Positions 28,034 through 32,843 of a DNA stretch of 64,000 nucleotides are shown here, one piece after another. Below the pieces are notes generated by a model. That model saw only the letters and a program-made list of their open reading frames with translations, had not been told where the DNA came from and did not search any database. Position numbers and translations under genes: made by a program. How positions within the stretch are numbered: the first letter of the stretch is position 1; each line of letters opens with the position of its first letter. Location: positions 1,357 to 65,356 of the forward strand of contig CAYZIN010000003.1 of assembly GCA_964478595.1 (NCBI GenBank). Reading direction: 5' to 3'. The DNA is from an uncultured Candidatus Saccharibacteria bacterium. GTDB lineage: Bacteria; Patescibacteriota; Saccharimonadia; UBA4664; CAZJNH01.

Positions 28034-29296
28034 ATGGCAGAGATTCTGCCCGAGATCGAAACATTTGCCAGAATTAAAGTAGTCGGCGTCGGCGGAGGTG
28101 GCGGATCGGCGGTCAACCGCATGATTAAAGCCAAACTGCAGGGTGTCGAATTTGTGGCGGTTAACACCGACGCGCAGGCTCTTCATAATTCTCACGCTCC
28201 GCGCAAGGTTCACATTGGTAAACAAACCACTCGTGGTTTGGGGGCTGGTGCTGACCCAGAAGTTGGTCGCCGAGCAGCCGAGGAAAGCGAAGCTGAAATT
28301 TTTGAGGCGCTAAAGGGCGCCGACATGGTCTTTATGACCGCCGGTGAAGGTGGCGGAACCGGTTCCGGCGCGAGTCCGCTAATTGCTCAGGCAGCTAAAG
28401 AAAGCGGCTCCTTAGTGGTTGCGATTGTGACTCGTCCATTTACGTTTGAGGGTGAACGCCGCAAGCGGGTGGCTGAAAAGGCTATTCAGGAGCTCAAGGA
28501 TAAAACCGACGCGCTTATTACCATTCCAAACGATCGGCTACTGTCGATGATTGACCGCAAAACTTCTTTAATTGACGCTTTTGGTATTGTCGATGATGTC
28601 TTGCGTCAAGGTGTCCAGGGTATTTCCGATTTAATTACCATTCAAGGATTAATCAACCTCGACTTTGCTGACGTGAAGGCGATTATGCAAGGTGCTGGTA
28701 CTGCGTTGATGGGTATTGGGCGAGCCAGCGGCGAGAACCGGGCGATCGAAGCGGCGCAACAGGCTATTGATTCGCCTTTGCTTGAGATTTCTGTTAACGG
28801 CGCCAAGGGTGTGCTGTTTAATGTGACCGGCGGACGCAATATGGGCATGCACGAAATCGACCAAGCCGCCAAAACCATTACCGATGCCGTTGATCCCGAA
28901 GCCAACATTATTTTTGGTGCAGTGCTTGATGAAACTCTGGATGACGAAATTAAAATCACCGTCGTGGCGACCGGATTTGAACCGAAGAAAACGCAACAAC
29001 AGCAGCAACAGCAACCTTACAGCTTTTCTTCTTATGTCTCCGGGACTCGCGGACCTTTCATTAATGAAAGGCCAGCAGAGGTGATTGAAGAAGAGGTGAC
29101 CGAAACCGTGGAGGTGATAGAGCCGGTGGCCAGTATTGAGCCTGAGCCGCTGTTTAATCGCGACATTGAGCCCGAGGCGGAAATAGTTGAACCGGCTAGA
29201 GCCGAGAAGGTTGAGACGGCGGCCGACTGGACCGAAGTCTCTCTCGACGACGATGATTTAGATGTGCCAGCTTTTATAAGAAAGAAGATAGACTAA
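28034..29296 (+). CDS. ftsZ: Cell division protein FtsZ
   Basis: It has the tubulin signature GGGTGSG. A Q7 linker lies ahead of the conserved C-terminal peptide ([13 protein letters not shown]). Confidence 0.95.
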
Positions 29297-29308
29297 GCAC
29301 AAAAAGTA

Positions 29309-29339
29309 TTGACACGCCCTCTACCATTAGCGTTATGAT
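29309..29339 (+). promoter_or_regulatory. Candidate nrdR promoter (TTGACA ... TATGAT)
   Basis: The -35 TTGACA is at 29309-29314. TATGAT lies 18-19 nt downstream. Confidence 0.4.
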
Positions 29340-29373
29340 GTAATTCGCTTACGCTAAATGTAGGGGGTATGTT

Positions 29374-29829
29374 ATTAAGTGTCACGAATGTGACTATCTA
29401 GACTCCAAGGTTATCGAATCGCGGGATGCCGACGGATTGTCGATTCGCCGCCGCCGCCAGTGTTTACGCTGCGGCTTTCGATTTACCACCTACGAACGAG
29501 CAGAGTCAGCCAAACTATCGGTCGTTAAAAAAGATGGGCGACGGGAATTATTTGATCGCGAAAAAGTGTCGGGCGGAATTTATCGGGCTTGTGAGAAACG
29601 GCCGGTGGCAGTGGCTTTAATTGAAGAAGTTGTCGACCAAATCGAGCGGGATTTGAGGGCAAGGGGGGAGGCTGAAATCGTTTCCAGCGAAATCGGTGAG
29701 CTTGTGATGCAAAAATTAATAACGCTAGATGACGTGGCTTACGTTCGATTTGCCAGTGTGTATCGCAGTTTTGCCGACTTGGCCAGTTTTGAGGCGGAGG
29801 TTGCGCGGCTTAAAAACCGGCCGGCTTGA
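29374..29829 (+). CDS. nrdR: Transcriptional repressor NrdR, apparently initiating at a non-canonical ATT codon
   Basis: The conserved N-terminal zinc ribbon (KCHEC ... RRRRQCLRCGFRFTTYE) and the ATP-cone lie in one frame. The first CxxC at 29380 is upstream of every ATG/GTG/TTG. An in-frame stop is at 29341. ATT at 29374 is preceded by an AGGGGG RBS with a 6-nt spacing, giving M-K-C-H-E-C like canonical NrdR. Confidence 0.75.
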   Translation: MKCHECDYLDSKVIESRDADGLSIRRRRQCLRCGFRFTTYERAESAKLSVVKKDGRRELFDREKVSGGIYRACEKRPVAVALIEEVVDQIERDLRARGEAEIVSSEIGELVMQKLITLDDVAYVRFASVYRSFADLASFEAEVARLKNRPA

Positions 29830-29892
29830 CGTTGACCCCGCACCTTTGACCTTAAAAGGTGCCGGGCTAGCGCCAAAACCGCTAGGGGGACT

Positions 29893-29911
29893 TTGACAAC
29901 TAGATTCTAGT
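29893..29911 (+). promoter_or_regulatory. TTGACA -35 hexamer abutting a 13-bp palindrome (ACTAGAtTCTAGT), a candidate NrdR box upstream of the RNR gene
   Basis: The palindrome directly overlaps the putative promoter of nrdJ. NrdR boxes are palindromic operators at nrd promoters. Confidence 0.35.
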
Positions 29912-30000
29912 TTATTTCTTCGAACTGTCTGGGGGGCGGAGCATCTGTGAGGGTGCAGTTGCTTCGCTGCCTGGACGGTCTACGAAAGAAAGGAACGCAA

Positions 30001-32754
30001 GTGACAGTTACGGAAATCAAGCCGTACGAAGAGCTGAAGGCTCGATTGGCGGAGGAGTTCGAGTTGGAGAAGGCGCGCAAGCCTTCATTCACCGAGAACT
30101 CGCGTACTACCTTCGACCTTCGATACTCAGTGAAGAACGAGGCCGGCGAACTGTCGGAGGATCCCCGCGAGGCGATCTGGCGGGTAAACTCCAACGTCTC
30201 CAGCATCACCCCGCTTTACTCGGGCTACCAAGGAACGACGGAGCCGGCGGAGGTTGATCGCGACACGGTGCCGTTCCCGCTGAAGCAGGCAGTTCGTCAG
30301 TACAACTGGTTGCTGAAGCAGGATCGGGTGCATTGCTCGTTCGAGGAACTGATGACCCACGGGGTCGACCAGTGGATCGAGCGGGCTCATACGTACCAGG
30401 AGATGGCGACGAGTTGGGACCACGTGTTCAATTCGCCGACTTGGACCGGAGCGGGGACTGGCCTGATGCAGTTGGCCGCTTGTTTCGTCCTGCCGATCTC
30501 CGACGACCTCGGCCGCGGCCGCTCGAGCATCTTCGAGACGCTCAAGGTGGCGGCGCTGATCCAGCAGACCGGCGGGGGCAATGGCTTCTCCTTCTCGGCG
30601 CTGCGCCCCAGCGGATCGCTGGTCCGGCGCAGCATGGGCAAGGCGACTGGGCCGATGGGCTTCCTCGAGGTCTACAACGCGGCCTTCGGCGTGATCGCTC
30701 AGGGTGGTTCGCGCCGGGGTGCCAACATGGGTGTGCTGCGAGTCAGCCACCCGGACATCCGGCCGTTCATCCAGTCGAAGGTTGTCGAGGGAGAGATCGG
30801 CAACTTCAACCTGAGCGTGGCGATCGAAGACGCGTTCATGGACGCCGTCGAACGCGACGGCGACTGGGTCTTGCAGTGGAAGCTCAACTCGCCGACGGAC
30901 GATCCGGTTGACTACCAGTTGACCGAGACCATCCGGGCGCGGGAGCTCTACGACGAGATCGTCAAGAACGCTTGGGTGATCGGAGACCCCGGCAACCTGT
31001 TCATCGATCGAGCCAACCGGGACAACCCGGTGCCGAAGCTCTACGTTCTGGAAGCCACCAATCCCTGCGGGGAACAGTGGCTGCCGCCGTATTCGAACTG
31101 CTGCCTCGGCTCGATCGCGGTCGTCAACTTCGTCGAATGGGACGAAGCGCGCGGTTGTTACGTCATGAACTGGGAGCGGCTGCGTCAAACGATCGTCCTG
31201 GCAACCGAAGCGCTCGACGACGTCATCGACGCCAACGCCTACGTTCCGGAAGTTCCGGAGCTGGAGGCGGCGGCGCAGGGCGAGCGGCGAATCGGGTTGG
31301 GCCAGATGGGCCAAGCGGATGCCATGATCAAACTCGGCATTCGTTACGGCGCTGCGGACGGTCTCGACTTCGCCAGCCAGCTGACGGAGTTCGTGCGTTA
31401 CCACAGCATGCTGACGTCGATTCGGCGGGCCAAAGAGCGCGGACCGTTCGAGTGGATCGAAGATTCGATCTACGATCCGAAGTTGCTGCGTGAACTCGGT
31501 CCCGGGGCGGAGATCTCAGGCGAAATGACCGATGGCAGCGGGCGGATGTACTCGTCGCGGCTATGGCAGCCGCCAACGCCGCTGGTCAAACACGAACGCG
31601 ACTTCGGCCGGCCGGACTGCGACTGGATCGTCGTGACCGAAGGCATCATGGAGCACGGCATCCGCAACGCCTGTCAGCTGACCATCGCCCCGACCGGCAC
31701 CATTGGTACTGTGTCGGCGATGGAGGGCTACGGCTGCGAACCGCTGTTCGCGCTGATCTACGAGCGGACGGTGATGCAGGAAGGCAAGGACATCAAGCTC
31801 TACTACCTGTCACCGCTGTTCGTTGAGGCTCTGCAGCGCGCCGGTATCGACGACGCGACGCAGAAGAAGATCCTGGACAAGGTCAAGGAAACGGGGTCGT
31901 GCCAGGGGATCGAAGAGGTGCCGGCCGAGATCCAGAATGTGTTCGTGGTGTCGGCCGATGTGACCGGCGATGAGCACGTTTGGACGCAGGCTGTCATCCA
32001 GCGGTTCGTCGACAACTCGATTTCCAAGACCATCAACCTCCCCAAAGAGGCGACGGTTGAGGACGTGTCGGCTGCCTACAAGCTGGCTTACCAGCTCGGT
32101 TGCAAGGGCATCACGGTTTACCGGCAGGGTAGTCGGGAACGTGAGGTTCTGGCAACGGGCAAGGGCGACCAGACGATCGATCCGGATCACTGGCCGTTCA
32201 TCGAGCCGATGCCGCTGCCCGGCTACGTCGAGACGGTGGGTCTACCGACGCGGACACTGCGGATGCCGACGCCGTTCGGTAAGCTTCACGGGTATCTGAC
32301 GGAGCTGGTCGAACACCCGGGGCGTCCGTTTGACACACGGCTGCAGTTCGGTAAGGCCGGCAACGACAAGGCGGCCGACATCGAAGCCATCGGTCGGTTG
32401 ATCTCGCTGTGCTTCCGGGCGGGAATCAACGTCAAGGATGTGGTTGACCAGCTCGAAGGCATTGGCGGTCAGAGTCAAATCGGGTTCCGCGACCGGAAGG
32501 TGCGGTCTTCGCCCGACGCGATCGCCAAGACCTTGAAGCGGCTTTACATGCCTGAAGAGTGGGCAGCCGACTACGCTCTTGACACCCCAACCAACGGCTC
32601 AGCGCCCACGGTTGTGGCGGAGCCGGCGGCTGTGAGCAAGCCGCGCGGTGATTTGTGCCCGGAGTGCAAGAACTACTCGGTAGTTCACATTCAGGGTTGC
32701 AAGTACTGCAAGCGGGAGCTGGGGGGCTGCGGCAAGCAGCTCAACTGCGACTAG
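30001..32754 (+). CDS. nrdJ: Class II (adenosylcobalamin-dependent) ribonucleotide reductase with C-terminal zinc ribbon
   Basis: It has the TNPCGEQWL active-site motif and class II-like domains. The C-terminus is CPECKN...[19 protein letters not shown] is about 63%. The start is proposed as GTG 30001 with an AAAGGA RBS. The ORF-track GTG at 29947 is also possible. Confidence 0.9.
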
Positions 32755-32843
32755 CAACAACGGTTTGATCGCTTATTTAGTGATCGGACGCGAGAGAGGG
32801 TGGGTCCAACCGGACCTGCCCTCTTTTCGTTTATAATAAGAAT

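Follow-up and report, generated by a model that had tools for sequence, protein, structure and literature searches.

A candidate AUU initiation codon for the repressor gene nrdR in a small clade of Saccharibacteria

We found that nrdR, in a 64-kb stretch of Saccharibacteria DNA (hereafter the window, by which we mean the whole stretch that was analysed), apparently begins with an ATT codon. Taken as a whole, the explanation that accounts best for our data, and that we consider very likely, is that full-length NrdR is made from AUU, that this weak start is heritable, and that it results in a low yield of repressor in an autorepressed nrdR-nrdJ operon. The ATT start of nrdR is a further example of a known phenomenon, namely the AUH starts of genes such as pcnB and infC, and does not call for a new mechanism. 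The genes and the promoter, operator and start signals of nrdR described below lie on the + strand.

The nrdR frame is closed upstream by an in-frame TAA at 29341-29343, after which it reads TTC GCT TAC GCT AAA TGT AGG GGG TAT GTT ATT AAG TGT CAC GAA TGT, with no in-frame ATG, GTG, TTG or CTG between this stop and the first Cys codon (29380). The ATT occupies positions 29374-29376, 6 nt after AGGGGG (29362-29367), or 5 nt when the gap is counted from the longer Shine-Dalgarno AGGGGGT (29362-29368), which is the strongest of any gene in the window. In this frame, the earliest canonical start is the TTG of Leu22 at 29437-29439, 57 nt past the first Cys codon; it is the start chosen by the gene finder, gives a 130-aa product and has no Shine-Dalgarno ahead of it. 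The original prediction had located the stop, the ATT, the AGGGGG and the 57-nt distance to the canonical start at these same positions, all of them correctly. When the window was scanned for an in-frame ATT, ATA, ATC or CTG that lies behind a strong Shine-Dalgarno and ahead of the first canonical start, only nrdR was found to have a substantial extension, of 21 codons, and the nrdR start pattern therefore exceeds chance. No infC gene is present in the 64-kb window, and no known RNA element from Rfam matched the region 29200-30200.

With Met placed at the ATT, the full-length nrdR coding sequence spans 29374-29829 (151 codons and a TGA stop), matches both Pfam and TIGR00244, and evolves with an omega of 0.017-0.08 relative to its relatives. 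The Pfam family Zn_ribbon_NrdR (PF22811) covers residues 1-41 of this product, at positions 1-42 of the 42 in the model, and the ATP-cone domain (PF03477) covers residues 49-134 of 151. The NCBIfam model TIGR00244 is matched over 1-147 of its 147 positions with 184.2 bits, the curated cut-off being 124.65, and such an end-to-end match to the NrdR models is obtained only when the protein starts at ATT. Both CxxC motifs of the zinc ribbon are encoded, the first (Cys3 and Cys6; TGT CAC GAA TGT) at 29380-29391, upstream of the annotated start, and the second (Cys30 and Cys33) at 29461-29472, the first pair being part of the protein only if translation begins at ATT. These matches indicate that nrdR very probably encodes a normal, functional, full-length NrdR.

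Relatives were identified by protein search, several of them through suspiciously short gene calls, and their DNA was then read. Two loci carry ATA at the homologous codon (...GGGGGTGCGTC ATA AAG TGT CAC...), namely L003 (JGI contig Ga0307469_10123458) and L004 (an ENA MEGAHIT contig); their identity to the window is 98% at the protein level and 82.5% at the DNA level. Two others, the Logan contigs L001 (SRR9179562) and L002 (SRR9179560), with 79-80% protein identity to the window, carry ATT (...GGGGGTGCGTC ATT AAG TGC CAC...). In all four, the frame is closed upstream by a TAA and lacks a canonical start, and the Shine-Dalgarno reads GGGGGTG, followed after 4 nt by ATA or ATT; the GGGGG(T) run is invariant in the relatives. 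GTG stands at exactly the homologous codon in the next-closest relatives, L005/L008 (a Candidatus Saccharibacteria MAG), L006 and L007, and likewise in L009 and in L168, the source of an additional short call (P0121) that proves to begin properly with GTG. In more distant relatives the start is AUG. The alignment of orthologs hence favours the ATT start put forward by the original prediction, with ATT or ATA in three lineages and GTG in the nearest relatives.

Between the window and L003, 67/68 nt are identical in the block comprising promoter, operator and Shine-Dalgarno, compared with 82.5% overall and with only 4/8 over the 8 nt of spacer and start codon. This pattern suggests that the third base of the start codon is free to change, never becoming G. 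Inside the clade, a neighbour-joining tree has bootstrap values of 4-51% and contains three ATT/ATA lineages; genome and metagenome scans, together with a further protein search for which the 130-aa product served as the query, returned the same three lineages and no further clade members. Judging from these comparisons, we conclude that the non-canonical nrdR start is inherited within a small clade of Saccharibacteria.

Outside this clade, canonical starts prevail. Among 79 GTDB species representatives, nrdR starts with ATG in 69, GTG in 7 and TTG in 3, and the 80 metagenome loci comprise 65 with ATG, 7 with TTG, 6 with GTG and a single ATA, which is L003 itself. None of the 158 other nrdR loci has a non-canonical start, and we did not find a report of one for nrdR in the literature. 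Genome-wide use of non-canonical starts was also considered and rejected, as the scan of the 64-kb window gave no other convincing case. From the loci counts and the scan, it therefore appears that the non-canonical start is specific to nrdR and to a small clade, and characterises neither the genome nor the NrdR family as a whole.

The gene upstream of nrdR is ftsZ (28034-29296 in the list of open reading frames), whose TAA stop at 29294-29296 lies 77 nt before the nrdR start; the same order, recognised by the Tubulin and FtsZ_C Pfam domains, occurs in the relatives. Between the two genes we propose a promoter with a putative -35 hexamer TTGACA at 29309-29314, invariant in 8/8 aligned relatives, and a putative -10 hexamer TATGAT at 29334-29339, which reads TATGAT, TATAGT or TATACT in the relatives. 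The spacer of 19 nt between these hexamers is unusual, a consensus scan made no promoter call at this place, and transcription is predicted to start near 29346. The putative -10 hexamer lies between two predicted NrdR boxes. NrdR boxes have six highly conserved positions, C4, A6, A8, T9, T11 and G13 (PMC13584703): box 1 (CCTCTACCATTAGCGT, 29318-29333) retains four of the six (C4, A6, T11 and G13), and box 2 (ACGCTAAATGTAGGGG, 29351-29366) retains them all. The second box follows the first after 17 bp, within the range of 14-18 bp that supports tight binding (PMC12051234), and its 3' end overlaps the Shine-Dalgarno.

Nowhere else in the 64 kb do CTA-N4-TAG cores occur as a tandem pair, and such a pair recurs ahead of nrdR in L005-L012 and in L168, often nearer to the consensus (for example ACGCTATATGTAGGGT in L009 and ACGCTAGATGTAGTGT in L010). 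NrdR regulons are recognised by paired 16-bp boxes about 15-16 bp apart in the promoter of an RNR-regulon gene, an arrangement shared by the predicted pair of the window. Transcriptional autorepression of nrdR is known in many bacteria (PMC9110341), and since conserved tandem boxes bracket the putative -10 hexamer, nrdR is most likely autorepressed at the level of transcription here too. A third box-like 16-mer, ACGCTAGATGACGTGG, is found inside the nrdR coding sequence at 29722-29737; it matches the consensus at 10/16 positions, in the left half only, and repeats the ACGCTA[A/G]ATG of box 2, probably by chance.

A repeat search also returned a long inverted repeat, pairing 29307-29333 with 29351-29377, which is more simply explained by the two palindromic NrdR boxes. 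We considered an RNA hairpin that would hide the Shine-Dalgarno (-35.5 kcal/mol, z = -4.3) and rejected it, as it needs a transcript that begins ahead of the nrdR promoter. RNA made from the predicted start near 29346 is unstructured (z about 0).

Downstream of nrdR lies a gene for an nrdJ-type class II ribonucleotide reductase (30001-32754; Pfam Ribonuc_red_lgN, Ribonuc_red_lgC and TSCPD), the likely start of which is the GTG at 30001, aligned with an ATG in L001. Between nrdR and nrdJ we found no terminator-like site, no NrdR-box pair and no convincing promoter, the conserved TTGACA at 29893 in this intergenic region having no -10 hexamer behind it. Because terminator, box pair and -10 hexamer are all absent from the intergenic region, nrdR and nrdJ probably form one co-transcribed operon with nrdR as its first cistron.

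The region around nrdJ has several further features. Over 30001-32800, the class II RNR gene has a GC content of 60-67%, compared with about 50% in its flanks, and the change is abrupt near 30100 and near 32800. In the same place, L005, the closest species representative, has a different type of RNR (RNR_Alpha and RNR-II_ins_dom, 778 aa), and the homology of L003 and L004 to the window ends at 29995. The reductase appears to be a cassette that was exchanged by horizontal transfer between flanks that stayed conserved. L001 and L002, which come from sister sequencing runs, are 1 nt apart in nrdR, yet they diverge altogether where the downstream RNR gene begins (at about L001:690 and L002:865), which again points to strain-level replacement at this locus. 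Just upstream of the nrdJ start, a leader of about 75 nt (29919-29994) is conserved between the window and L003, L001 and L007, and folds as one long hairpin with an apical GAGGGU loop and 29 predicted pairs, 6 of them with compensatory changes across the 4 sequences; nothing in Rfam matches it, and L005, with its other type of RNR, lacks it. A second element, GGCTAGCGCC-A(n)-CGCTAGGGGGACTTTGACAA at 29865-29899, is near-invariant in all relatives, whichever RNR gene follows. Within it, CTAGCG and CGCTAG form an inverted repeat around a loop of 7 nt; the element lacks the geometry of NrdR boxes and is preceded by a hairpin at 29842-29866 whose sequence varies between relatives and whose pairing is kept.

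We infer that ribosomes use the AUU and that the rate of translation is low. Initiator tRNA would read the near-cognate AUU at 29374 (AUA in the sister lineage) with low efficiency, the ribosome being positioned on it by the strong Shine-Dalgarno AGGGGGU 5 nt upstream, and the weak start would keep the repressor yield per transcript low. Transcription itself would be autorepressed through the promoter bracketed by the two NrdR boxes, and as the repressor would be the first cistron of nrdR-nrdJ, a poor start on that cistron would increase the reductase relative to the repressor. A third base that varies between T and A and is never G, together with GTG in the sister lineages, fits a tunable weak start. 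In E. coli reporters, initiation at AUU, AUA or AUC reaches about 1-2% of that at AUG (bioRxiv 10.1101/063800), and the rules may differ in Saccharibacteria because most genes of the window lack a Shine-Dalgarno, a Shine-Dalgarno-like 4-mer being present upstream of only 8/32 large genes. We also noted that in 11/32 large open reading frames a -10-like hexamer ends 4-13 nt ahead of the start codon, compared with 3% at random positions, which suggests that many mRNAs of this genome are leaderless or have very short leaders.

A more far-reaching proposal, which we put forward tentatively and regard as rather doubtful, is that the weak AUU, AUA and GUG starts of nrdR were selected as a gain control on the autorepressed nrdR-nrdJ operon. 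Since NrdR would repress its own transcript, less NrdR translation would force more transcription of the operon and so yield more reductase, and lineages with swapped class II RNR cassettes would have re-tuned the start codon of the repressor. In that event, the dNTP supply would be sensitive, as a by-product, to IF3 and to the state of translation in the cell.

Alternatively, the AUU might be a dedicated, infC-like switch through which NrdR synthesis tracks IF3 activity or the translational state, for example ppGpp. IF3 discriminates against AUU and AUA. Moreover, the codon has stayed non-AUG across saturated synonymous divergence. Nutrient limitation, and ppGpp in vitro, preferentially inhibit mRNAs with a non-AUG start (PMC5499595), and NrdR synthesis might depend on IF3 or ppGpp. 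However, NrdR stands outside the initiation machinery, hence no autoregulatory loop can run through the codon, and the variation between ATT, ATA and GTG among close relatives fits an adjustable level of expression better than a specific sensor. We therefore consider a dedicated switch unlikely. These results divide the original prediction, which had placed the nrdR start at ATT and had seen in it a possible translational control point of the infC type. The first part is supported by the orthologs and by purifying selection. The second finds no support, because NrdR, a DNA-binding repressor with a zinc ribbon and an ATP cone, is no initiation factor and not the one that discriminates against AUU; the autoregulation visible in the sequence is transcriptional, by way of the NrdR boxes.

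Translation could also enter nrdR from an out-of-frame start, followed by a frameshift or by termination and reinitiation, in which case ATT would serve only as a reinitiation codon. Two out-of-frame ATGs are indeed present close to the start, one at 29369 and one that is directly followed by a stop (ATG TAG, 29358-29363), and L001 has a mini-ORF of 5 codons (ATG GGG GTG CGT CAT TAA) whose stop overlaps the ATT. Nevertheless, neither ATG of the window feeds into the nrdR frame, the one at 29369 is missing from L001-L004, and the mini-ORFs vary in frame and length between lineages, ATG TAG being found also in the GTG lineage L006. The out-of-frame ATGs lack a Shine-Dalgarno of their own, and no conserved slippery heptamer is found in the window or in L001-L004. 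As they coincide with conserved positions 8-13 of NrdR box 2, they are most simply seen as a by-product of the operator, and we regard entry by this route as highly improbable compared with direct initiation at the ATT.

The start codon might instead have been lost, leaving either a decaying pseudogene or only the 130-aa product from the TTG at 29437, without the first CxxC. Public gene calls of 121-139 aa (P0003, P0005, P0028 and P0119) would be in line with this, P0005 (130 aa) being identical to the truncated open reading frame, and the ATT/ATA carriers of all three lineages are called as such short proteins. On the other hand, the codons that such calls leave out are under purifying selection. 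Over codons 2-21, all 10 differences between the window (ATT) and L003 (ATA) are synonymous and none is non-synonymous (S = 12.2 sites, N = 47.8 sites); in the remainder of nrdR, dS between the two is 0.93 and omega 0.017, omega against L001 is about 0.07, and whole-gene values range over 0.02-0.08 across comparisons, with the nrdR frame intact in all lineages. As the differences between these two lineages, neither of which has a canonical start, are exclusively synonymous, the 20 codons between ATT and TTG are evidently translated, and the substitution pattern thus indicates that the region upstream of the annotated TTG is read in the nrdR frame.

The residues that would be missing from the shorter product argue in the same direction. 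A protein begun at residue 22 would lack two zinc ligands, Cys3 and Cys6, which form the first CxxC, and the DNA-contact positions 15 and 17 (Glu15 and Arg17). In Streptomyces coelicolor NrdR, Asp15 and Arg17 make contact with C4 and G13, two critical bases of the box, and both CxxC motifs are needed for the zinc ribbon (PMC13584703; PMC9110341). The absence of a Shine-Dalgarno before the TTG likewise speaks against a start at that codon. A lost start is in our view barely credible, and the possibility that functional NrdRs of this type do without the first CxxC, which would have undermined the original prediction, is refuted by the selection on the N-terminal codons. Finally, although a single base separates ATT from ATG and the window comes from a metagenome-assembled genome, we give practically no credence to a sequencing or assembly error at 29374-29376, since ATT or ATA recurs in diverged backgrounds (75-82% nt identity) in four more contigs, independent public assemblies from different projects and assemblers that represent two other lineages, and since no member of the clade has ATG at the homologous codon, only ATT, ATA or GTG.

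Initiation of full-length NrdR at AUU has practical consequences. Every public call for the nrdR of this clade (121-139 aa) would be truncated, with half of the zinc ribbon missing, and annotation pipelines should permit ATT and ATA starts for the NrdR family. Such pipelines already special-case the non-canonical start of infC. Bacterial genes known for a conserved non-canonical AUH start are very few; a repressor gene would join them, and the AUA of the sister lineage, if truly used, would be one of very few natural bacterial AUA start codons. Furthermore, close relatives would offer a natural series of ATT, ATA and GTG with which start-codon tuning could be studied in an autoregulated operon.

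A close parallel to the locus as a whole is nrdRJ of S. coelicolor, where nrdR also stands directly upstream of a class II RNR gene and two 16-bp NrdR boxes overlap the nrdR promoter, so that the repressor controls both itself and the reductase (PMC9110341, PMC13584703). The two loci differ in the spacer between the boxes (15 bp in S. coelicolor, 17 bp in the window) and in that box 2 of the window overlaps the Shine-Dalgarno; in the window, moreover, co-transcription is something we infer.

With regard to the start codon itself, infC, which encodes IF3 and starts with AUU or AUC, resembles nrdR in having a phylogenetically conserved AUH start that gene finders must special-case. In infC, however, the product is the very factor that discriminates against the codon, which closes a feedback loop, and we know of no role for NrdR in translation initiation. 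A further close parallel is E. coli pcnB, encoding poly(A) polymerase I. It belongs to another protein family and another organism, and its start was confirmed experimentally, whereas that of nrdR is known by sequence comparison; nrdR also differs from pcnB in that AUA occurs as well and in its strong Shine-Dalgarno. Yet pcnB likewise has an AUU start, its protein is one that is wanted at a low level, the inefficient codon limits expression in the way that we propose for nrdR, and its orthologs in other lineages use canonical codons, as those of nrdR do (bioRxiv 10.1101/063800). As would be expected of a gene of the infC and pcnB type, nrdR shows no canonical in-frame start ahead of its conserved N-terminal residues, a Shine-Dalgarno at a functional distance, and a non-canonical codon that is conserved in relatives and followed by sequence under purifying selection.
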